NCBI GenBank assembly: GCA_050942765.1
Contig: JBMNNY010000001.1
Coordinates: 1-46,207 of the forward strand
Source: Bacillota bacterium
Lineage (GTDB): Bacteria > Bacillota > UBA4882
Reading direction: 5' to 3'
Length of the DNA stretch: 46,207 nucleotides
Shown here: piece by piece, positions 1 through 25,686 of the stretch
How the letters are laid out: the number at the start of each line of letters is the position of its first letter
How positions within the stretch are numbered: position 1 is the stretch's first letter
The notes under the pieces: generated by a model
Told to the model about the DNA's origin: nothing
Databases searched by the model: none
Seen by the model: the letters and a program-made list of their open reading frames with translations, nothing else
Program-made: the position numbers and the translations under genes

Positions 1-2
1 AA

Positions 3-1298
3 GTAGTGCTGCACGGAGAGTTCTTTTCAAAGGTCATTTCCGAAATACCTAATACGACCGTGCGTCTTAAAAATGGCGATCAAGTGGCAAACACGAAGTC
101 TTTTAATAACGGAGAAGATATATACTGGTTTGCCGTTGATCCCAATACAGAATGGACAATTGAGACTGATGTTCCTGAGTTGGGATATCTTAAGAGAGCC
201 GCAATTTTCATAGCTCAATCGACTGCAGTTAATATCGATTTGGATGAAAAGATCTGTATCAAGGGACGTATTACAGAAAACGACTTGATGCCTATCCCTG
301 GAGAATTTCCGGGTGGGAAAGTCCGCCTGATAACCAGGGACGGTATCACAAGAGCAGAGTGCGATATGGGGGTTGATGGTTCATTTGAAGTGTATGCTCC
401 GCCTAATCTTTACAGGGTTGAGGCAGATTCGGAGACTAGAATACAGGCAATAGAAGAGGACTGTACAGAAAAAGGAATGCCTGATGCAGTAATAAACTTT
501 ACCGAGATTGTTATTACCGGCAATATCGCTATGCGGGACGGCAGGGTTCCTCTCACTTTTCCAGCATCAGAGGTTGGTTTTCTTGAGAATGGAGAGATGA
601 AGGAGCTAATTTCTCTCCAAAAGGGAATAGGAAGTTTTAAGGCCATCATACCAGGAGGAGAGTATTCTATACGCCTTGCTTTGAATGAAACTCCCATCAC
701 TCATAATTTTCCTAAAGAAGCGATCAATAGATCCTGCAAAAAGACCCTCCACATCGACTCCCACGTCGCCCGCATCATGGGCAACATCTCAACAACTTTG
801 GGTACTCCTGAAGGACAGACTTCGATTAGTGTTTATCGGGCTGACAATGGAGCTTTAGTCCAGACCAAAAAGTATAATCCGGGTGAGTCATACGAGTTTT
901 ACCTTAATCCCAATAATTATAACATCGTTGTATCTAATCCGAACTACGTCACGATATCGAAAGAATCTGTCGCAGCTTTTGGCGATATCTTTGTTGACTT
1001 TCGTTTCACGCATGCGCCGATCACATTCAATCTCAAACTACCTAAAGAATCGGCTTTTTGGGGCTCTTACTTCATTTTGAGCAAGCACGGTGATGCCTCT
1101 AATCTGTTTGAGCTAATCCATGATCCCGCTGCTCCCCACGACTATACATATTCTATTACCTATGGAGTTGAACTTGGCCGTACACTCTATGTGTTTTTTG
1201 CAATGGAAACCCCGGATCTGTATGAGGAGTACGTAGAACGAAAAGAATACGTGTTTACCAAAGCCGCCACCGTAACTCCATTCTTGATTCCCCAATAG
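3..1298 (+). CDS. C-terminal part of a large secreted/surface protein made of repeated carboxypeptidase-regulatory-like (prealbumin-fold) beta-sandwich modules; the 5' end runs off the window
   Basis: The frame is open from the window edge, with no stop before the GTG at 6. A module signature recurs at least 3 times (IKGRITEND...GSFEVYAPPNLYRVEA; ITGNIAMRDG...GSFKAIIPGGEYSIRL; IMGNISTTLG...YEFYLNPNNYNIVV). Confidence 0.45.
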   Translation, partial: VVLHGEFFSKVISEIPNTTVRLKNGDQVANTKSFNNGEDIYWFAVDPNTEWTIETDVPELGYLKRAAIFIAQSTAVNIDLDEKICIKGRITENDLMPIPGEFPGGKVRLITRDGITRAECDMGVDGSFEVYAPPNLYRVEADSETRIQAIEEDCTEKGMPDAVINFTEIVITGNIAMRDGRVPLTFPASEVGFLENGEMKELISLQKGIGSFKAIIPGGEYSIRLALNETPITHNFPKEAINRSCKKTLHIDSHVARIMGNISTTLGTPEGQTSISVYRADNGALVQTKKYNPGESYEFYLNPNNYNIVVSNPNYVTISKESVAAFGDIFVDFRFTHAPITFNLKLPKESAFWGSYFILSKHGDASNLFELIHDPAAPHDYTYSITYGVELGRTLYVFFAMETPDLYEEYVERKEYVFTKAATVTPFLIPQ

Positions 1299-1370
1299 AT
1301 TTCGCAGCACCAATATGCGGTACTAAAAGATCCTGCACAGTCTTCCGATAATAATTAAGGCACTCCGAAA

Positions 1371-1404
1371 AGCAGGAGGTGTTCCTGAAATGGCACCTCC
1401 TGTT
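1371..1404 (+). terminator. Weak candidate stem-loop terminator after the first ORF
   Basis: AGCAGGAGGTG (1371-1381) pairs with CACCTCCTGTT (1394-1404) across a 12-nt loop. No clear T-run follows. Confidence 0.3.
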
Positions 1405-1709
1405 GCTGTATGTATTGGGCTTTACGACGCTTGCGAACCGCCAGACTTGTACTGTAATGATATCCCATTGTTCACGTTCAGACTGCTTAGAAAATTTCGC
1501 AGGAATTGATTTTAGTGTACCGAATTATAAATGGTTTAGTAATTGAAGGTGGAGGTGATTTGCTGGCATCGATTATGTTTTGCGAAAGCGCACCGCAATG
1601 CGAGAATGCGCAGTTTGCGCCGTTTAGGAAAACACACCGTAACTCCTATAGCATCTATTTTCATCAAATTTGAATCTGCAGTTTACCTGCATGCCTGGGG
1701 GGAGTGGCA

Positions 1710-2015
1710 ATGCGAATTCAGGATCACCCGATTCTGGAACTCAAGAAAGGTCCCAGGGTCAAATTCACGTTTAATGGCCAAGAAATTTACGGCTATGAAG
1801 GGGAGAGCATTTTGGCAGCCCTGCACGATGCGGGTGTCTATGTATTAAGCCATAGTCTGAAAAAGCATCGTCCCAGGGGATTGTTCTGTGCGATCGGTCA
1901 TTGCTCATCCTGTTCCATGAGGGTCAATGGTGTTCCCAATGTCAGGGTTTGCGTGGAACCTTTACGCGAAGGTATGGTTGTTGAAACCCAGGAAGGGAAG
2001 GGTGTGCTGGCATGA
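1710..2015 (+). CDS. [2Fe-2S]-binding small subunit (HcnA / SoxA N-terminal / OoxA-type)
   Basis: The ATG at 1710 lies 5 nt after GGGGGGAG. The Cys block GLFCAIGHCSSCSMRVNG and a length of about 100 aa are typical of HcnA-like 2Fe-2S proteins. The stop overlaps the next start (ATGA at 2012). Confidence 0.8.
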   Translation: MRIQDHPILELKKGPRVKFTFNGQEIYGYEGESILAALHDAGVYVLSHSLKKHRPRGLFCAIGHCSSCSMRVNGVPNVRVCVEPLREGMVVETQEGKGVLA

Positions 2016-3124
2016 AAAAGACCGAAATTGCCATTGTCGGTGGAGGCCCGGCCGGACTGGGAGCAGCACTGAGCGCTGCATCAATGGGTGCCCAAGTAGT
2101 GTTGTTTGATCGTCAATATTCTCTTGGTGGACAACTGGTGAAGCAAACTCACAAATTCTTTGGATCAAAGGCTCAATTCGCGGGAGAACGCGGAATTAAG
2201 ATTGCGGAGGATCTGGCTGCCAAAGTGGCCGCCCATCCAAATATTAAGGTTATGCTGAACAGCACCGTCCTTGGCTATTACAATGATAAGGAACTCTTGT
2301 TCCAGCAGGGACGTCATGATTTGGATATTATTAAAGCCGATCAGATTGTGGTGGCAGCAGGAGCATCTGAAAAGATGTTGGCTTTTCCAAATAACGATTT
2401 GCCCGGCATTGTCGGTGCCGGGGCCATTCAAACCCTGATGCATATTGACGGGGTGCTGCCCGGCAGCAACGTCCTTGTAGTCGGATCAGGGAATATTGGC
2501 CTAATCGTAACATATCAATTATTGCAGGCTGGCGTGCATGTCGCAGCCATTGTAGAAGCAGCGCCGCGCATCGGAGGTTATCTGGTGCATGCTTCCAAGG
2601 TCCGTCGGCTCGGTGTTCCGATTCTGACCAAACACTCCATTAAGACCGCCATTGGTACCGACCGGGTCGAAAAGGCTGTGATCTGGCAGCTTGATTCGCA
2701 ATGGCAGGGTATCGAAGGTACGGAGCAAACGTTCGAAGTTGATACCATTGCGTTGGCAGTCGGTTTATCACCGTGTGCCGAACTCCTGTGGCAGGCTGAT
2801 TGCGCGATGGTTGATGTACCAGAATTAGGTGGTTTTGTTGCTTATCATAATGATCGTTATGAGACGACCACCCCTGGAATCCTGGTGGCCGGAGACGCCG
2901 CCGGTATTGAAGAGGCATCCGCAGCACTGCTCGAAGGAGAACTGGCTGGCATATTTGCCGCTCAGAATCTTGGTCATAGTTTTGAAGGTGTTGAAGCGAT
3001 CATTGCCAAGAAACGCGCCGAACTGGCGTCTTTACGCATCGGCCCGACCGGTGAAAAGATTCGCGCAGGAATGGCCCGGCTGGCAGAACGGGGGGATCAT
3101 CAGTGCTTGAGCAAACTGGGATAG
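2012..3124 (+). CDS. FAD/NAD(P)-binding pyridine nucleotide-disulfide-type oxidoreductase subunit (HcnB/OoxA-like)
   Basis: There are two Rossmann signatures, IAIVGGGPAGLGAAL and VLVVGSGNIGLIV, and a C-terminal GDAAG motif. The ORF is translationally coupled on both sides. Confidence 0.8.
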   Translation: MKKTEIAIVGGGPAGLGAALSAASMGAQVVLFDRQYSLGGQLVKQTHKFFGSKAQFAGERGIKIAEDLAAKVAAHPNIKVMLNSTVLGYYNDKELLFQQGRHDLDIIKADQIVVAAGASEKMLAFPNNDLPGIVGAGAIQTLMHIDGVLPGSNVLVVGSGNIGLIVTYQLLQAGVHVAAIVEAAPRIGGYLVHASKVRRLGVPILTKHSIKTAIGTDRVEKAVIWQLDSQWQGIEGTEQTFEVDTIALAVGLSPCAELLWQADCAMVDVPELGGFVAYHNDRYETTTPGILVAGDAAGIEEASAALLEGELAGIFAAQNLGHSFEGVEAIIAKKRAELASLRIGPTGEKIRAGMARLAERGDHQCLSKLG

Positions 3125-3621
3125 CAGAACAAGAGCAGATTAAAGCGATCATGCCTTCCGAAGAAAGGCTGAAAAAAGGACCGGTCGCCATATTCGAATG
3201 CTTCCAGAAGATACCGTGCAATCCGTGTACCGAAGCATGTGCACGTAAGGCGCCCAGGCCGATGAATGACATTAATGATCTGCCCAGCGTGGACTATGAT
3301 CAATGTAATGGTTGCGGATTATGCATCAGCGCCTGTCCGGGACTGGCCATCTTTGTCGTTGACATGACCCAGGGCCCGCATTCCGCGCTGGTTAAACTGC
3401 CCTATGAGTTCCGTCCCTTGCCTGAAAAGGACAGCATGGTCACCTTGCTGAACCGGGAAGGACGCGCCGTGGGACATGGTCGGGTACAGGCTGTGGACAA
3501 CAGGCCTAATCAGAACAAGACTGCCGTGATATCGGTTGTTGTGCCGAAAGAACTCGCCATGGACGTACGTGCGATTACACTTATGACTCATAATTTAGAA
3601 TCTCAAGAGGATAGGGGGTAA
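3103..3621 (+). CDS. 4Fe-4S ferredoxin-type subunit (about 19 kDa)
   Basis: Motifs CNPCTEAC and CNGCGLCISACP are present. The GTG at 3103 lies 6 nt after GGGGGGAT and overlaps the upstream stop at 3124. The start could alternatively be the ATG at 3151. Confidence 0.65.
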   Translation: MLEQTGIAEQEQIKAIMPSEERLKKGPVAIFECFQKIPCNPCTEACARKAPRPMNDINDLPSVDYDQCNGCGLCISACPGLAIFVVDMTQGPHSALVKLPYEFRPLPEKDSMVTLLNREGRAVGHGRVQAVDNRPNQNKTAVISVVVPKELAMDVRAITLMTHNLESQEDRG

Positions 3622-3626
3622 CGGGC

Positions 3627-3920
3627 ATGGATGATAACACCATCATCTGCAGATGCGAAGACCTTACCCTCGGCGAACTGCGTCGTCGCATCCAGGAAGG
3701 TTATACCAGCTGGGAAGAATTGAAGCGGCTTACCCGCTGCGGGATGGGTTCATGTCAGGGAAAGACCTGCCGGAACCTTATACTTCGTGAATTAGCCTTG
3801 GCCGGCTATAAAGAGCCATTTACACCGAATAGTTTCAGACAGCCCATTGCCCCGGTAACTTTGGAAGACCTAAAGCAGGCCGGTGGCGGCGAGCTTGCCG
3901 GAGGTGGCAAACATGAATGA
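3627..3920 (+). CDS. BFD-like [2Fe-2S]-binding small subunit
   Basis: CRCEDLTLGEL...CGMGSCQGKTC is the BFD-like 2Fe-2S signature. Confidence 0.75.
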   Translation: MDDNTIICRCEDLTLGELRRRIQEGYTSWEELKRLTRCGMGSCQGKTCRNLILRELALAGYKEPFTPNSFRQPIAPVTLEDLKQAGGGELAGGGKHE

Positions 3921-5064
3921 ACATGCCGATATCGTCATCATTGGCGGAGGCATCGTGGGATGTTCCACAGCTTATCATCTGGCTAAGATGGGCGGAGCCG
4001 GGCGGATCATTCTGTTAGAAAAAGACTTTATCTGCAGTGGTTCGACAGGGCGTTGCGGTGCCGGTATTCGTCAGCAATGGGGAACGGAGACCAACTGCGC
4101 ATTGTCAATCCGTAGCATAGAGATGTTCGAGAACTTACAGGAAGAATTGGATTATCCGGAAGATATGGAGTTCAAGCAGGGCGGCTATCTGATGCTGGCG
4201 CATACCGAACACATGCTTGAACAGTTCCGCAAAAATGTGGAATTGCAGCGCCGCCTGGGTGTAGACGTCAGTCTGATTACACCTGAGGAAGCCCGCGAGA
4301 TTGTACCGATGCTCAATACCGAAGGCATGCTGGGCGCAACTTTCTGCCAGCGCGACGGGCATCTCAACCCGTTTAGAGTAACTGATGCCTATGCGCGTGC
4401 CGCCAAACGCCTCGGAGTCGAGATCCGTCTCCGGACTCAAGTGACAGGACTGGAACGCCAGGGCGATCGTATTACTGCTGTTAACACGAAGGCGGGACGC
4501 ATTACAGCTGGCAAAGTCATCAACTGCTCCGGAGCCTGGGCTGGTGAGCTGTGCCGTATGGCCGGAGTCGAAACCCCATTTTACGCCGAAAAACACCAGA
4601 TTCTTGTCACGGAACCGGTTGAGCCTTGCGTGAAACCAATGGTCATCTCGCTCTACCACGGCTTGTATTGTCAGCAATCGCCGCACGGCAGCTTCATAAT
4701 GGGTATTGGTCATCCCAATGAACCACGCGGCTTTGAAGTTAAGGCTGACTGGCGTTTCGCCACTGAGATGGCGAGCAAGGTAATTTACTTGCTTCCGCGG
4801 CTTAAAGATCTGCATGTTGTCAGACAATGGGCTGGTCTTTATGATATGACTCCTGATGCTCAGCCGGTTTACGGCCTGGTGCCGCCGCTCTCCAACTTCT
4901 ATGTGGCGGCCGGATTCAGCGGTCATGGCTTTATGCTTGGTCCGATTACCGGCGTTCTGATGAGCGAGATCGTCAACGGCCTTCCGACCAGCGTCGACGT
5001 TTCGATGCTGGATATGGGCCGTTTTGAGCGCGGCGAGCTGTTCATTGAACCGTCTGTAGTCTGA
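3913..5064 (+). CDS. FAD-dependent oxidoreductase, DAO family (SoxB / HcnC / OoxB / proline dehydrogenase beta-like)
   Basis: The N-terminal motif is DIVIIGGGIVGCSTAYHLA. DAO-family length and the C-terminal GFSGHGFMLGP fit the family. GGAGG lies 8 nt upstream, and the start overlaps the previous stop (ATGAATGA). Confidence 0.85.
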   Translation: MNEHADIVIIGGGIVGCSTAYHLAKMGGAGRIILLEKDFICSGSTGRCGAGIRQQWGTETNCALSIRSIEMFENLQEELDYPEDMEFKQGGYLMLAHTEHMLEQFRKNVELQRRLGVDVSLITPEEAREIVPMLNTEGMLGATFCQRDGHLNPFRVTDAYARAAKRLGVEIRLRTQVTGLERQGDRITAVNTKAGRITAGKVINCSGAWAGELCRMAGVETPFYAEKHQILVTEPVEPCVKPMVISLYHGLYCQQSPHGSFIMGIGHPNEPRGFEVKADWRFATEMASKVIYLLPRLKDLHVVRQWAGLYDMTPDAQPVYGLVPPLSNFYVAAGFSGHGFMLGPITGVLMSEIVNGLPTSVDVSMLDMGRFERGELFIEPSVV

Positions 5065-5106
5065 TGATTTGCGGGATTAGAAACCGGAACAAAAGGGGGC
5101 GATCTT

Positions 5107-5514
5107 TTGAAACTAGAAGTCCGTGAAAAAGCATGTTCGGGATGTCGTACCTGTGAAGTGGCCTGCGCGCTGAAGAATTACAAAGAAAATAACCCTAAAA
5201 AATCAGCACTGCGCATCACAGGCGAATTTCCAACCCCCGGAGGGTATCAGATCGCTTACTGCAACCAGTGCGGTACCTGCGCGGAAGTTTGTCCGACCGG
5301 TGCGATCAGCCTTGTTGACGGAGCGTATATCATCGATCAGGAAACCTGCATCGGGTGCTATGTCTGCGTAGAGTCCTGCCCGAATAAGGCGATGTTTATC
5401 CATAAGACTGAGAAAGCACCTATCAAATGCACCAATTGCGGGGCGTGCGTGCAGTACTGCCCGCGGGAAGCAGTCTACGATGCAGAAGTCGGCATCAAGG
5501 GGAGGGTCGGCTGA
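5107..5514 (+). CDS. Polyferredoxin with four 4Fe-4S motifs (AorA-like electron-transfer subunit)
   Basis: Four Cys motifs are present: CSGCRTCEVAC, CNQCGTCAEVCP, CIGCYVCVESCP and CTNCGACVQYCP. The TTG start follows AAAGGGGG. Confidence 0.85.
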   Translation: MKLEVREKACSGCRTCEVACALKNYKENNPKKSALRITGEFPTPGGYQIAYCNQCGTCAEVCPTGAISLVDGAYIIDQETCIGCYVCVESCPNKAMFIHKTEKAPIKCTNCGACVQYCPREAVYDAEVGIKGRVG

Positions 5515-5515
5515 A

Positions 5516-7366
5516 ATGTTGTATGGCTATGCCGGGAAAATCTTGCGTGTTAACCTGACAACCGGAAATATTAAGGCAGAACCTCTCTCGGAGGAGATGG
5601 CCCGCGATTACATCGGCGGCCGCGGATTTGCTGCGAATATTCTGTATCGCGAGATTCCAGCGGGAACGGATCCGCTGTCTCCAGCGAATAAAGTGGTCGT
5701 GGCTGCCGGCCCATTGAGCGGTTTGTTTTTGCCGGGCAGCGGCAAAATTACGTTTGCCTCCAAATCGCCAGCCACCGGCGGTTACGGCGACAGCAACATG
5801 GGCGGCCATATGGCCAGCGAGCTGAAGTATGCCGGTTATGATGCCATTATCATTGAGGGAGCCGCTCAGAAACCGTCTTACCTGTATATTGATGATGATC
5901 ATGTTGAAATTCGGGATGCCTCCAAGTACTGGGGCAAAGGCGCCATGATCAGCGAGCGCATGATCCTTGATGATCTGGGCGAAGACTTCCGGGTGGCGAC
6001 GATCGGCCCGGCTGGTGAAAATCTGGTCAAATATGCGTGCGTCTCGCACGATTTTGGTCGTCAGAGCGGGCGCACCGGCATCGCGGCTGTGTTGGGATCC
6101 AAGAAGGTCAAGGCCATCGCCATTCGTGGCACTCAAACTATTCCGGTGCCGGATCCTGAAAAGATGTTTGAAGTTGGCGGGCGGATGTATGAAATCTGCT
6201 TCGCCAAGCCGGGATTTAAAGAATGGACACCGGATGGCACGGCGGGCGTGACGGATTGGGTCAATCAGATTGGGGCTTTCCCGACTAAGAATTTCTGGAC
6301 CGGCTACTTTGAAGAGCACAAGAACATCAATGGCCAGTCTTTGAGCAGCAGGATCAAAGTGCTTGACAAAGGCTGCTTCGGATGCCCGATTCCGTGCGGT
6401 AAATATGCCAAAGTCGATATGGGTGGCCAGTCGGTGAATGTGGAAGGTCCCGAGTATGAGACCATTGCACTGCTAGGCGGCAACCTGATGCTGGACAGCA
6501 TTGAAAAAGTGGCTTATGCCAACTATGTTTGCGACGAGCTGGGGCTCGATACGATTTCTGCCGGTAATGTCATTGCCTTTGCCATGGAGTGTCTTGAAAA
6601 AGGCGTCATTACCCGGGAGCAGGTCGGGCAGGAGCTGCGCTGGGGCAGCATCGATGATGCTGTCAAGATGATGCATGCTATCGCTAACCGCGAAGGAATT
6701 GGTGATGTGCTGGCGGAGGGCGTGCGTTATGCGGCCGAGAAATTTGGTGGCGGCTCCGAGAAATATGCGATTCATGTCAAGGGTCTGGAATGGAGCGGTT
6801 ACGAAGCCCGTTATGCTCCTTCGATGATGCTTGCCTACATTACTTGCGATCTGGGTGGCCACCACAACCGGGCCTGGGCGATTACGCATGACGTAGCCAC
6901 CGGGCGCGATAGCCTGGTGGGCAAGGCTGATAAGGTTATTGAACTGCAGCATGTACGGCCGATGTTCGATAATTTGGGTGCGTGCCGTCTGCAGTGGGTT
7001 GAAATCGGATTCGAACTGGATCATTATATCGAACTGATCGAAACCGCTACCGGTTACCATTATTCCTGGGAAGATCTGATGAAGGTCTCCGAGAGAGTGT
7101 GGAATCTGACGCGTTCGTTCAGTCTGCGTGAGATTGGCGACTTCGGGAGAAAATATGATTATCCGCCGGCCAGATTTATGGAAGAGCCGATGCCGACCGG
7201 TCCGGCCAAGGGTAAGTATATTCCTCGCGAACAGATTGACACGCTGCTCGATGAATACTATGACAAACGCGGCTGGAATCGGGAAGGGAAACCGAAACGG
7301 GAGACCCTTGATTCCCTGAAGCTTGGATTTGTAGCGGATGAGCTAGCCTCACTCGGGAGGTTGTGA
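5516..7366 (+). CDS. aor: Aldehyde:ferredoxin oxidoreductase (tungstopterin AOR family)
   Basis: The N-terminus MLYGYAGKILRVNLTTG...YIGGRGF is typical of the family, as are the roughly 616-aa length and the internal AOR-family blocks (GPEYETI, DxxGxC-type region). The ATG lies 1 nt after the ferredoxin stop. Confidence 0.9.
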   Translation: MLYGYAGKILRVNLTTGNIKAEPLSEEMARDYIGGRGFAANILYREIPAGTDPLSPANKVVVAAGPLSGLFLPGSGKITFASKSPATGGYGDSNMGGHMASELKYAGYDAIIIEGAAQKPSYLYIDDDHVEIRDASKYWGKGAMISERMILDDLGEDFRVATIGPAGENLVKYACVSHDFGRQSGRTGIAAVLGSKKVKAIAIRGTQTIPVPDPEKMFEVGGRMYEICFAKPGFKEWTPDGTAGVTDWVNQIGAFPTKNFWTGYFEEHKNINGQSLSSRIKVLDKGCFGCPIPCGKYAKVDMGGQSVNVEGPEYETIALLGGNLMLDSIEKVAYANYVCDELGLDTISAGNVIAFAMECLEKGVITREQVGQELRWGSIDDAVKMMHAIANREGIGDVLAEGVRYAAEKFGGGSEKYAIHVKGLEWSGYEARYAPSMMLAYITCDLGGHHNRAWAITHDVATGRDSLVGKADKVIELQHVRPMFDNLGACRLQWVEIGFELDHYIELIETATGYHYSWEDLMKVSERVWNLTRSFSLREIGDFGRKYDYPPARFMEEPMPTGPAKGKYIPREQIDTLLDEYYDKRGWNREGKPKRETLDSLKLGFVADELASLGRL

Positions 7367-7369
7367 GCG

Positions 7370-7609
7370 ATGCTGCGGATCACGCTCCAGACACGGGGGT
7401 ATTTGCAGCAAGTTTTCCCGGATAAGAAAGATACCGTTGTGGTCGAAGTTGAAAGGCCCGAGGCCGTACGCGCCTTAATTGCCAGACTGAATATTCACCC
7501 CGATCTGGTGATGGTGGTGCTATCAGGTGACGGGCAGCGCCGGGACCTGGATTATGTGCCAGGGGACGGTGAGGTTGTCACGATTCTGCCGCCAATTTCC
7601 GGGGGATGA
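7370..7609 (+). CDS. MoaD/ThiS-family small sulfur-carrier-like protein
   Basis: The protein is 79 aa and ends ...ILPPISGG (C-terminal Gly-Gly). It begins 3 nt after the AOR stop. Confidence 0.75.
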   Translation: MLRITLQTRGYLQQVFPDKKDTVVVEVERPEAVRALIARLNIHPDLVMVVLSGDGQRRDLDYVPGDGEVVTILPPISGG

Positions 7610-7703
7610 GGGTTTCCGGCGCTGCTGGCACTAGCGGAGGAAGCCGGAATTCTGAATCCGGAGTGGAGTGCCGGAATGAAAAATGGTGATATGAAATGAG
7701 AAA

Positions 7704-7750
7704 GAGCCCGGAGCTTATTCAGTTGGTATAAGCTCCAGGCTCTTTGCTTT
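7704..7750. terminator. Bidirectional rho-independent terminator between the AOR operon (+) and rseP (-)
   Basis: GAGCCCGGAGCTTA (7704-7717) pairs with TAAGCTCCAGGCTC (7729-7742) with 1 mismatch. TTTGCTTT follows it and an A-rich run precedes it. Confidence 0.8.
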
Positions 7751-7860
7751 GTGAGGCGATGCATGGTAGCGGCTATAGCAGGCGGTGGCGGCCGGGCTGG
7801 GATAGGATGTAGGCCGGCCGGATCCAGGCCTAATGGGCTGAATCACAGTCAGAGTATGGA

Positions 7861-8892
7861 TCAACTGACGAACTTCAGCACATCTTTGACAGTGACGAAG
7901 ATGATCAGTAAAAAGATTGCGGCGAAGCCTACTAAATGTATCACGACTTGCTTTTTTTCACTCAGGCGCAAGCCGAAGAGTCCTTCCAGAGCCAGCAATA
8001 TCAAACGTCCTCCGTCGAGCGCCGGGAACGGGAACAGGTTAAACCAGCCGAGGTTGATGCTGATCAGGGCGAGCACAGTAAGGAAGTTGGACCAACCAGT
8101 GGCGGCAGTGGCAGCCACATCCGATACCATGCCGATAGGACCGGAGAATTGACTCAAGCCGGTCTTGCCGGTGAACAGCGCTGCAAAAGCCCGGATAACA
8201 GCGGTTGACATTTCATGCATTGCGGCGCCGGTATGCAAAATTATTGCGCCAATTGTGGCGGAGGAATGACTGTAAACAACATTTTCACGCATTGTAACGC
8301 CAATGCGCCCGGAGCGTGGCGTGACTTCTGCTGTAAAGATGTTATTATCGCGTCGGATTTGCATTTGCATGGTACTGCCTGAAGGATCCTGACGCACAAA
8401 TTCCCCTAAGGCGGAAGACGAGTTCAAGGGCTGGCCGTTGACATCAATGATTATATCTCCGGGGAGCAGACCAGACGCTTCGGCAGCAGAACCCTGCTCG
8501 ATGTTGGAAATTACTACTTCACTGCCGACTGGAAGACCTTGCACAGCTGCTATTGAGAAGATGAGCAGCGCGGCCAGGACAAAGTTCAGCAAAGGACCGC
8601 CAATTGTAAACAAAACTCGCGCCCACACCGGGCGGTTTTGCATTTTACGCGGGTCAGCACATTCTTCCGGATCATCCGGATTTTCGATGCCATCGACCAT
8701 GGCGTATCCCCCGAATGGCACCAGATTTACACGGTAATCAGTGCCGTTTCTTTTGATGCCAAACAGACGCTTACCAAAACCAAGAGCCAACTGACGAACG
8801 CGCATTCCGCCGAGCTTTGCTCCGATGAAATGCCCCAGCTCATGGATGAACATAACCAGGCTTAGTCCAATTATGGCCGCCAAAATGTTCAT
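7861..8892 (-). CDS. rseP: RIP site-2 metalloprotease RseP (M50 family)
   Basis: HELGH lies in the first TM segment, the PDZ core is GLLPGDIIIDVNGQ, and the C-terminal motif is NLFPFPALDGGR. The start is taken at MNILAAI; an upstream ATG at 8910 has no RBS. Confidence 0.85.
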   Translation of the reverse strand: MNILAAIIGLSLVMFIHELGHFIGAKLGGMRVRQLALGFGKRLFGIKRNGTDYRVNLVPFGGYAMVDGIENPDDPEECADPRKMQNRPVWARVLFTIGGPLLNFVLAALLIFSIAAVQGLPVGSEVVISNIEQGSAAEASGLLPGDIIIDVNGQPLNSSSALGEFVRQDPSGSTMQMQIRRDNNIFTAEVTPRSGRIGVTMRENVVYSHSSATIGAIILHTGAAMHEMSTAVIRAFAALFTGKTGLSQFSGPIGMVSDVAATAATGWSNFLTVLALISINLGWFNLFPFPALDGGRLILLALEGLFGLRLSEKKQVVIHLVGFAAIFLLIIFVTVKDVLKFVS

Positions 8893-9030
8893 AAAAACCC
8901 AGCCTTTCATTTATCAAATATCAAATTCACCGCTCCGCTGGAAGTCGTGCCACCATCATCTATCATAATCTATATTCCAGTATGATATAAATAACGTCGC
9001 AAGCTCTTCGAAGTTCCGGCATGTTCCATT

Positions 9031-25424: not shown

Positions 25425-25686
25425 TGGGATTGCACCTTCTTTGTGGAGGCATAGAAGCGTTTCCGCAATAGCGGAAAGGGCTCAAGAGTATTATAAAATG
25501 TTAAAAGTATTCGCGGTTTTGGCGAAATTTCCTGCTTCTGGGAAGTCTTCATCAATTCGCGCACAAGAAATGAATATGGCGCCTGCTAATGGATGGCGAC
25601 TGCCATGTTACTTCAACACATCACAATGGCACGCTTTTTGCTCATAAAAAAGTTGTGATAAGATGCAGGAAAAGGTCGTCGTTAAT

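Follow-up and report, generated by a model that had tools for sequence, protein, structure and literature searches.

Here, we describe a cluster of eight genes (g1 to g8, positions 1710 to 7609, plus strand) in a stretch of 46,207 nucleotides from a Bacillota bacterium. This stretch, called the window below, is contig C61 of a metagenome-assembled genome (2.16 Mb, 231 contigs, completeness 95%) whose nearest named relative is 'Firmicutes bacterium UBA4882'. We propose, with a probability of roughly 0.6, that the eight genes form one operon for the anaerobic conversion of L-proline, via pyrroline-5-carboxylate (P5C) and glutamate γ-semialdehyde, to glutamate, and that the second oxidation is carried out by a ferredoxin-linked, tungsten-type enzyme of the aldehyde oxidoreductase (AOR) family. 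The observations behind this proposal are the structure of the cluster, the families of its products, their conserved catalytic residues, the conserved linkage of the genes, and the displacement of the AOR by P5C dehydrogenase in sister operons. The pathway and the enzyme families are already known; what is new is the enzyme assigned to the second step, and full-text searches of the literature gave no paper linking a proline dehydrogenase with an AOR-family or tungsten enzyme. A preliminary description of this DNA had suggested a coupled route from amine to aldehyde to acid, with proline among several example substrates. The coupling is supported by our analysis, in that the flavoprotein and AOR modules are co-conserved and the gap between them (5065 to 5106) carries no internal terminator or promoter signal. 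Among the examples, the route from proline through glutamate semialdehyde to glutamate is now favored, because L-glutamate γ-semialdehyde dehydrogenases of equivalog level fill the AOR position in sister operons.

In the proposed mechanism, g1 to g5 would assemble a heteromeric iron-sulfur flavoprotein proline dehydrogenase of the Thermococcales type, in which the flavin adenine dinucleotide (FAD) of g5 would oxidize L-proline to P5C, which would open spontaneously to glutamate γ-semialdehyde. The electrons from proline would exit through the [2Fe-2S] and [4Fe-4S] subunits g4, g1, and g3 and through the second flavoprotein, g2. The tungsten or molybdenum pterin enzyme g7 would then oxidize the semialdehyde to glutamate, in place of the usual P5C dehydrogenase dependent on nicotinamide adenine dinucleotide (NAD). 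Its low-potential electrons would travel over five [4Fe-4S] clusters, one in g7 itself and four in the polyferredoxin g6, to ferredoxin or back into the flavoprotein, and g8 would aid maturation of the pterin cofactor. The substrates, direction, electron acceptor, and metal named in this scheme are predictions from sequence.

The identity of the aldehyde is suggested by what else occupies the place of the AOR. A reverse query with g5 against metagenome contigs showed that g1 to g5 are a conserved five-gene unit by itself, which is found with three kinds of partner immediately downstream: (i) a polyferredoxin and the AOR described here (three loci with a readable AOR, whereas locus L065 ends after the polyferredoxin); (ii) a polyferredoxin and a 713-amino-acid member of another AOR-family clade (AOR2), with only 28% identity to the former and closest to AOR sensu stricto (four loci); and (iii) an NAD-type L-glutamate γ-semialdehyde dehydrogenase (seven loci), in two subfamilies that score above the NCBIfam equivalog cut-offs (779 bits for TIGR01236, with a cut-off of 614, and 781 bits for TIGR01237, with a cut-off of 660). 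In the tree of the beta subunit (g5), operons with P5C dehydrogenase, AOR, and AOR2 as partners are intermingled. Five P5C dehydrogenase-linked and four AOR2-linked operons share one clade that has 100% support and terminal branches below 0.08, and the AOR-linked group from Desulforamulus is sister to P5C dehydrogenase-linked operons. One dehydrogenase served by three non-homologous or distantly related aldehyde-oxidizing enzymes is the signature of non-orthologous displacement, and the slot shared with P5C dehydrogenase would identify the aldehyde as glutamate semialdehyde. The predicted chemistry is that of two-step proline catabolism by PutA, or by PruA/RocA with a separate dehydrogenase, and the sister operons carry enzymes of the PruA/RocA type after the module. 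Unlike in that route, no PutA-type Pro_dh domain was found in the source genome (95% complete), and the second step is assigned to a pterin/iron-sulfur enzyme that would yield low-potential electrons instead of NADH.

The nature of the displaced enzymes also bears on two rival explanations. According to the first, the substrate is another imino acid—4-hydroxyproline, racemized D-proline, or pipecolate—and the AOR oxidizes hydroxy-glutamate, α-ketoglutarate, or aminoadipate semialdehyde. Related heteromeric enzymes indeed act on D-hydroxyproline and opines (PMC4575208), active sites like that of formaldehyde:ferredoxin oxidoreductase (FOR) take C4 to C6 acid aldehydes (PMC12096430), and two loci of permuted gene order, L038 and L044, carry a racemase/epimerase-family gene and a second, paralogous dehydrogenase set. 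However, this racemase gene adjoins the paralogous set, which is without a Fer4 subunit, and not the orthologues of g1 to g5; neither a racemase nor a deaminase is encoded in the window or in most loci; and the displaced enzymes pass equivalog cut-offs for glutamate semialdehyde dehydrogenases, not for those of α-ketoglutarate semialdehyde or aminoadipate semialdehyde, so that we consider another imino acid unlikely. According to the second, the operon runs in the biosynthetic direction, with the AOR reducing glutamate at the expense of reduced ferredoxin and without ATP and the flavoprotein reducing P5C to proline. Such a reversal finds a precedent in AOR-family enzymes that are able to reduce acids with low-potential donors (PMC12096430), and P5C reduction is thermodynamically easy; yet the NAD-dependent P5C dehydrogenase that alternates with the AOR is effectively irreversible (PMC12041015) and the neighbors of related operons are importers and catabolic-type activators, which leaves a biosynthetic role very improbable.

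That g1 to g5 belong to the superfamily of HcnABC, opine, and proline dehydrogenases had been recognized in the preliminary description, and we find the L-proline dehydrogenase of Thermococcales (PDB 1Y56) to be the closest member. Archaeal proline dehydrogenases, D-hydroxyproline dehydrogenase, opine dehydrogenase, and HCN synthase make up one heteromeric family (PMC4575208). The g5 product (3913 to 5064) is a 383-amino-acid FAD-binding beta subunit of the DAO family (Pfam DAO, 3e-83), whose best solved relative is 1Y56_B, the beta subunit of L-proline dehydrogenase from Pyrococcus horikoshii (PH1364; E 1.3e-87, 297 bits, ~45% identity, residues 2 to 375 aligned to 4 to 374), and is predicted to hold the L-proline-oxidizing site. 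(Our g5 queries began at 3916 or 3883, which shifts the N terminus by one to ten residues only.) The archaeal alpha subunit, in turn, is split into three genes here, as g1, g2, and g4 match consecutive parts of 1Y56_A. g1 (1710 to 2015), a 101-amino-acid [2Fe-2S] protein (Pfam Fer2_4, E 1.6e-30) with cysteines at 60, 65, 68, and 81, matches residues 9 to 88 and corresponds to the first ~90 residues of that chain. g2 (2012 to 3124), a 370-amino-acid flavoprotein with two dinucleotide folds (Pfam Pyr_redox_2, E 4e-32), which is predicted to bind FAD and, at a second GxGxxG site, NAD(H) or ATP, matches the central residues 110 to 380. g4 (3627 to 3920), a 97-amino-acid, BFD-like [2Fe-2S] protein resembling a delta subunit (Pfam Fer2_BFD, 1.8e-11; SO_alpha_A3, 6e-8), matches residues 412 to 454, which are part of the C-terminal ~90 residues.

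The remaining gene of the module, g3 (3103 to 3621), encodes a 172-amino-acid ferredoxin-like subunit (Pfam Fer4, E 2.5e-7) with two cysteine motifs, whose eight cysteines are invariant in 21 orthologues and are predicted to bind two [4Fe-4S] clusters. The solved alpha4beta4 enzyme (1Y56) has no counterpart of g3, for which the likely equivalent is the ferredoxin-like gamma subunit in the alpha-beta-gamma-delta enzyme of Thermococcus; the best 120 homologues of g3 are all bacterial. In several bacteria, g3 and g4 are fused into a single protein of 254 to 275 amino acids with Fer4, Fer2_BFD, and SO_alpha_A3 domains (P0012, P0013, P0021, P0041, and others), which ties both subunits to one complex. 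Taken against the Thermococcales enzymes (alpha4beta4 in P. horikoshii and alpha-beta-gamma-delta in Thermococcus profundus), the module has a beta subunit with ~45% identity from end to end and all three alpha regions, and its small ferredoxin-like subunit, g3, probably corresponds, judging by its cysteine motifs, to that of the four-subunit type. It differs from them in being bacterial, in consisting of five polypeptides, and in sharing its operon with an aldehyde oxidoreductase.

HcnABC and opine oxidase were set aside as identities for the module because the best-scoring solved relative is a proline dehydrogenase and because those three-subunit enzymes are without a Fer4 subunit. Heterotetrameric sarcosine oxidase (SoxABDG) was rejected as well: matches to the soxA-family model cover only positions 16 to 100, 169 to 486 (the match of g2), and 522 to 598 of 996; g5 reaches 225 bits with the NCBIfam soxB model, for which the cut-off is 529; and there is no SoxG or SoxD. 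A looser version of this identity would be a sarcosine-type N-methyl amino acid dehydrogenase without the folate domain, which would for that reason release free formaldehyde, to be oxidized to formate by the FOR-like enzyme. The matches of g5 to SoxB (193 bits) and of g1, g2, and g4 to parts of the soxA-family model speak for it, as does the name of the closest solved AOR relative, formaldehyde:ferredoxin oxidoreductase. We nevertheless regard it as improbable, since the soxB score is far under its cut-off and the proline dehydrogenase beta subunit is closer (297 bits), since the slot in the sister operons holds glutamate semialdehyde dehydrogenases and not formaldehyde-handling enzymes, and since no glycine or one-carbon genes are adjacent.

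For the last three genes, an AorA/AorB/AorD layout had been noted; the layout is borne out, but the catalytic subunit has its nearest solved relative in P. furiosus FOR and not in AOR, and there is no AorC, as no gene for an AorC-type FAD/NAD-reducing subunit lies between or after g6 to g8 up to the terminator. g6 (5107 to 5514) encodes a 135-amino-acid polyferredoxin of the AorA/WorS small-subunit type (Pfam Fer4 families), with four CxxCxxCxxxC motifs for four [4Fe-4S] clusters and 16 cysteines, all invariant in 22 orthologues. It precedes the AOR gene with a 1-nucleotide gap here and in nearly all relatives. g7 (5516 to 7366) is a 616-amino-acid pterin enzyme of the AOR/WOR family (Pfam AFOR_N, 1.6e-79; AFOR_C, 1.3e-127), which we call FOR-like on the basis of PDB bit scores—537 for P. 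furiosus FOR (1B25, matched end to end), 462 for 1AOR, 405 for 9MQX, 358 for 8C0Z from Aromatoleum aromaticum, and 292 for WOR5. It keeps the second-shell residues Glu308, Tyr416, His437, and Thr240 (FOR numbering) as well as the four cluster cysteines, all of which are invariant across 50 clade members except His437, present in 49 of them.

Two further residues, Arg481 and Arg492, are present in every one of the 50 clade members; at the same positions, Arg and Lys occur in the AOR2 clade, whereas the other paralogues do not have two basic residues there. We take these arginines to bind the distal carboxylate of glutarate in FOR, an assumption of ours that goes beyond the conservation itself. 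FOR has its lowest Km for glutaric dialdehyde, and its crystal contains glutarate (PMC12096430), the carbon skeleton of glutamate, which fits a role of the FOR-like g7 in glutamate semialdehyde oxidation. We predict g7 to be a glutamate-γ-semialdehyde:ferredoxin oxidoreductase. The function of FOR itself was still called unknown in 2025 (PMC12318220). Compared to that enzyme (1B25/1B4N), which is the best solved match and shares its catalytic residues and cluster cysteines with g7, the difference lies in the company kept: FOR is a homotetramer made up only of large subunits, whereas g7 is accompanied by a four-cluster polyferredoxin and a MoaD-like gene. In this respect, the module resembles the AorABC(DE)/WorSL-type system of A. 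aromaticum, with the same order of polyferredoxin, catalytic subunit, and MoaD-like gene and a small subunit with four [4Fe-4S] clusters (PMC12096430), but it has no AorC and its g7 scores higher with FOR than with the A. aromaticum structure. The MoaD-like gene, g8 (7370 to 7609), encodes a 79-amino-acid MoaD/ThiS-like protein with a C-terminal Gly-Gly (Pfam ThiS, E 3e-5; a weak match to TIGR01687, moaD_arch). A gene of this type comes after the AOR in most related loci, and g8 is likely an AorD-like sulfur carrier for maturation of the pterin cofactor. The source genome also contains two MoeA genes and two further AOR-family paralogues, ~30% identical to g7 (C94:5076-6998 and C132:1145-3237), the one on C132 likewise preceded by a polyferredoxin gene.

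The linkage between the two modules recurs in other genomes. Among 50 loci retrieved with the AOR as query (one genome per species, 50 to 94% identity), 18 have the collinear cluster g1 to g7, with g8 next in 12 of them, and two have a permuted order in which polyferredoxin and AOR are followed by g1 to g5; about 24 have polyferredoxin and AOR only, with or without the MoaD-like gene, and in six the sequence ends too near the AOR to judge. Co-conservation of flavoprotein genes and AOR, on which the preliminary description had staked its coupling, is thereby established for 20 of the 50 loci, in two gene orders. In the AOR tree, linked loci stand on basal branches and are also scattered through the clade, with eight label changes, of which well-supported branches force at least four; this indicates that the link is old and was lost on several occasions. 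Of five genomes tested in which the AOR is unlinked, three have a complete five-gene module elsewhere. Relatives' operons are preceded by Liv-type amino acid ABC importers, by sigma-54 activators that carry PAS or CBS sensors, or by GntR/FCD regulators, which fits an inducible catabolic operon; no importer or regulator of these kinds is adjacent to the operon in the window itself.

A census of 400 genomes drawn evenly from the phylum of the window (E ≤ 1e-90 for g5 orthologues, E ≤ 1e-170 for the AOR) gave the same association. Of the 400 genomes, 99 have a g5 orthologue and 46 have this AOR; the two occur together in 39, that is, in 85% of the AOR-positive genomes, compared to 25% of all genomes for g5. 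In 19 genomes, which represent at least nine families, the AOR follows directly after g5 on one contig. P5C dehydrogenase of type 1 was found in 18 genomes and that of type 2 in 48. The 99 g5-positive genomes divide into 32 with the AOR only, 29 with P5C dehydrogenase only, 7 with both, and 31 with neither, while among the 301 g5-negative genomes the AOR occurs in 7 and P5C dehydrogenase in 30. The odds ratio of g5 with the AOR is 27, and that of the AOR with P5C dehydrogenase within the g5-positive genomes is 0.23, an anti-correlation; both values are raw, without correction for shared ancestry, and descriptive.

Several points weigh against the proposed proline operon. The co-occurrence statistics ignore shared ancestry; most g1-to-g5 modules are solitary (in the phylum sample, about 22 among the 29 best loci), so that the link to the AOR is a recurrent minority arrangement; about half of the AOR orthologues do not adjoin the module; 7 AOR-positive genomes are without it; and 7 of the 39 sampled genomes with module and AOR also have P5C dehydrogenase. 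The activity for which FOR is named is on C1 to C3 aldehydes. As to the metal, which may be tungsten or molybdenum, the tungstate-binding protein WtpA was not found in the genome, in a search that did not extend to TupA. Finally, a stand-alone, NAD-type P5C dehydrogenase of type 1 is encoded elsewhere in the source genome (contig C41:8398-10029, minus strand, locus L086; TIGR01236, 752 bits), which means that the AOR is not needed to complete the pathway in this genome. The earlier idea of a proline route without an NAD-dependent P5C dehydrogenase is therefore not true of this bacterium. The gene on C41 sits among unrelated genes with long non-coding flanks, and no other AOR-carrying genome in the 400-genome sample has a type-1 enzyme. 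The AOR may be a ferredoxin-yielding alternative to this NAD enzyme, or the latter may serve the breakdown of arginine or ornithine.

Some of these points lead to a further rival explanation, in which the two modules are mere neighbors without a shared pathway and AOR, polyferredoxin, and MoaD-like protein form a general aldehyde scavenger or acid reducer. The AOR orthologues that lie elsewhere adjoin unrelated genes (a beta-eliminating lyase, lactate/malate dehydrogenase, cell-wall genes), and this, like the solitary g1-to-g5 modules, is what such a scavenger would predict. The gene upstream of the cluster (3 to 1298, plus strand) encodes a protein with weak CarboxypepD_reg-like repeats and shares synteny with AOR-only loci in related bacteria (L055 to L058 and L064), where the CarboxypepD_reg protein directly precedes the polyferredoxin-AOR pair, beside a beta-eliminating lyase gene. 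This synteny suggests that g1 to g5 were inserted here, or deleted elsewhere, between that gene and the polyferredoxin, and a joining by insertion would suit chance neighborhood. However, the adjacency recurs in at least nine families and in two gene orders, an unrelated AOR clade is found in the same position, the module is strongly enriched in AOR-positive genomes, the 42-nucleotide gap is without a terminator, and unlinked copies co-occur in the three genomes mentioned above; we thus find it hard to credit that the modules are functionally separate.

The structure of the cluster is consistent with the proposed single operon. All eight open reading frames are co-directional and overlap or nearly abut their neighbors, with the junctions at 2012, 3103 to 3124, 3913, 5515, and 7367 to 7369 present just as first described. 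The stop of g1 overlaps the ATG of g2 at 2012 (ATGA); g3 starts with GTG at 3103, 22 nucleotides ahead of the g2 stop, a start from which its orthologues align at residue 1; and g4 follows g3 after a 5-nucleotide gap. The ATG of g5 at 3913, within ATGAATGA, gives an 8-nucleotide overlap with the g4 stop. The widest spacing, 42 nucleotides, separates g5 from the TTG start of g6, and gaps of 1 and 3 nucleotides lie before g7 and g8. A purine-rich ribosome-binding site stands ahead of each of the eight. A consensus scan found internal promoter- or terminator-like sites in the cluster at no more than the level of shuffled sequence, and the 5065-to-5106 gap before the polyferredoxin gene shows no significant fold (z -0.16). 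All the domains named in the preliminary description (Fer2_4, Pyr_redox_2, Fer4, Fer2_BFD, DAO, AFOR_N/AFOR_C, and ThiS) were also recovered with Pfam. The cluster ends at an intrinsic terminator (7701 to 7757, plus strand), a 45-nucleotide hairpin followed by a U-rich tail (-29 kcal/mol, z -4.3), which may be bidirectional because rseP converges from the minus strand.

Upstream of g1, the intergenic region and leader (1299 to 1709, plus strand) comprise a hairpin after the upstream gene (~1335 to 1400), an AT-rich block (~1460 to 1540), and the ribosome-binding site GGGGGGAG before g1. The 410-nucleotide leader aligns to that of a same-genus relative, with which the AT-rich block is conserved (alignment with L015/L066). 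A search with Rfam over positions 1 to 9000 at a permissive threshold gave no riboswitch or other Rfam family in the leader, with two chance-level matches only, and no site matching the sigma-54 consensus was found upstream of g1.

Beyond the linear route, the eight proteins might act as one wired, confurcating redox machine, with the net reaction proline + 2 NAD+ to glutamate + 2 NADH and without a quinone or external ferredoxin. High-potential electrons from proline would enter at g5 and those from the semialdehyde at the tungsten site; the latter, at low potential, would reach the flavoprotein via the polyferredoxin and the clusters of g3, and both streams would converge on the flavin of g2 to reduce NAD+. 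The P5C/proline couple lies at about -120 mV. Acid/aldehyde couples lie at about -590 mV (PMC12041015), and with ~ -0.59 V available, AOR and polyferredoxin could supply electrons that make proline-dependent NAD+ reduction feasible. A precedent exists in FngABC (2026), which unites a DAO/BFD flavoprotein with a Pyr_redox_2 flavoprotein and a [4Fe-4S] subunit and in which electrons of two origins, a high-potential donor and reduced ferredoxin, are joined in the reduction of NAD+ (PMC13689815). Like FngABC, the cluster encodes a DAO flavoprotein, a BFD [2Fe-2S] protein, a Pyr_redox_2 flavoprotein of the Hcn/opine family, and a small [4Fe-4S] subunit, a likeness that is an analogy only; unlike in FngABC, the DAO and BFD parts are on separate genes and the substrate differs. 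Membership in the FngABC family itself was rejected, as g3 has no DUF1667 match and g2 is without the Gln-Cys-Ile-His motif of FngB (features according to PMC13689815). We offer confurcation as a speculative and, on balance, rather doubtful extension. If true, it would make the complex akin in logic to FngABC, with glutamate semialdehyde as the natural substrate of archaeal FOR.

For strict anaerobes without a respiratory chain, proline oxidation poses the problem that its high-potential electrons have no obvious outlet, and the bacterial use of an archaeal-type proline dehydrogenase is uncharacterized. If the proposed operon for proline oxidation functions as described, it would (i) give a first physiological role to a large tungsten-type clade, the one found in 46 of the 400 sampled genomes; (ii) save the low potential of the aldehyde as reduced ferredoxin, rather than spending it on NAD; and (iii) provide a concrete candidate substrate for P. 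furiosus FOR, whose function was called unknown in 2025 despite a glutarate-bound crystal from 1999. Because the linked operon is carried by two cultured bacteria, Desulforamulus putei DSM 12395 and D. aeronauticus DSM 10349, the hypothesis is directly testable.

Further observations concern the related loci. The second, paralogous set in the two permuted loci (L038:17358-21814 and L044:17452-21667) consists of g1-, g2-, g4-, and g5-like genes with 26 to 49% identity; it adjoins the gene of the proline racemase/hydroxyproline epimerase family, a GntR regulator, and a DUF885 protein, and may represent a D-proline or hydroxyproline branch that feeds the same AOR. In four loci, the five-gene module is preceded by a gene for a ThiF/MoeB-family adenylyltransferase, directly in L071 (4820 to 5608) and L072 (4730 to 5542) and with a sigma-54 activator gene in between in L074 and L083; the gene is present whether the downstream partner is P5C dehydrogenase or AOR. 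Bacillota-like clusters also occur in bins labeled Chloroflexota, Ignavibacteriales, Pseudomonadota, and 'Mycobacterium leprae' (L017, L018, L034, and L060), which probably reflects mis-binning, horizontal transfer being less likely. The remaining genes of the window are housekeeping genes, including rseP, cell-wall enzymes, and uvrABC. About 160 nucleotides upstream of the uvrB open reading frame, at 25627 to 25642 (plus strand), there is a perfect sigma-54 promoter consensus (TGGCAC-N5-TTGC), which may be due to chance.

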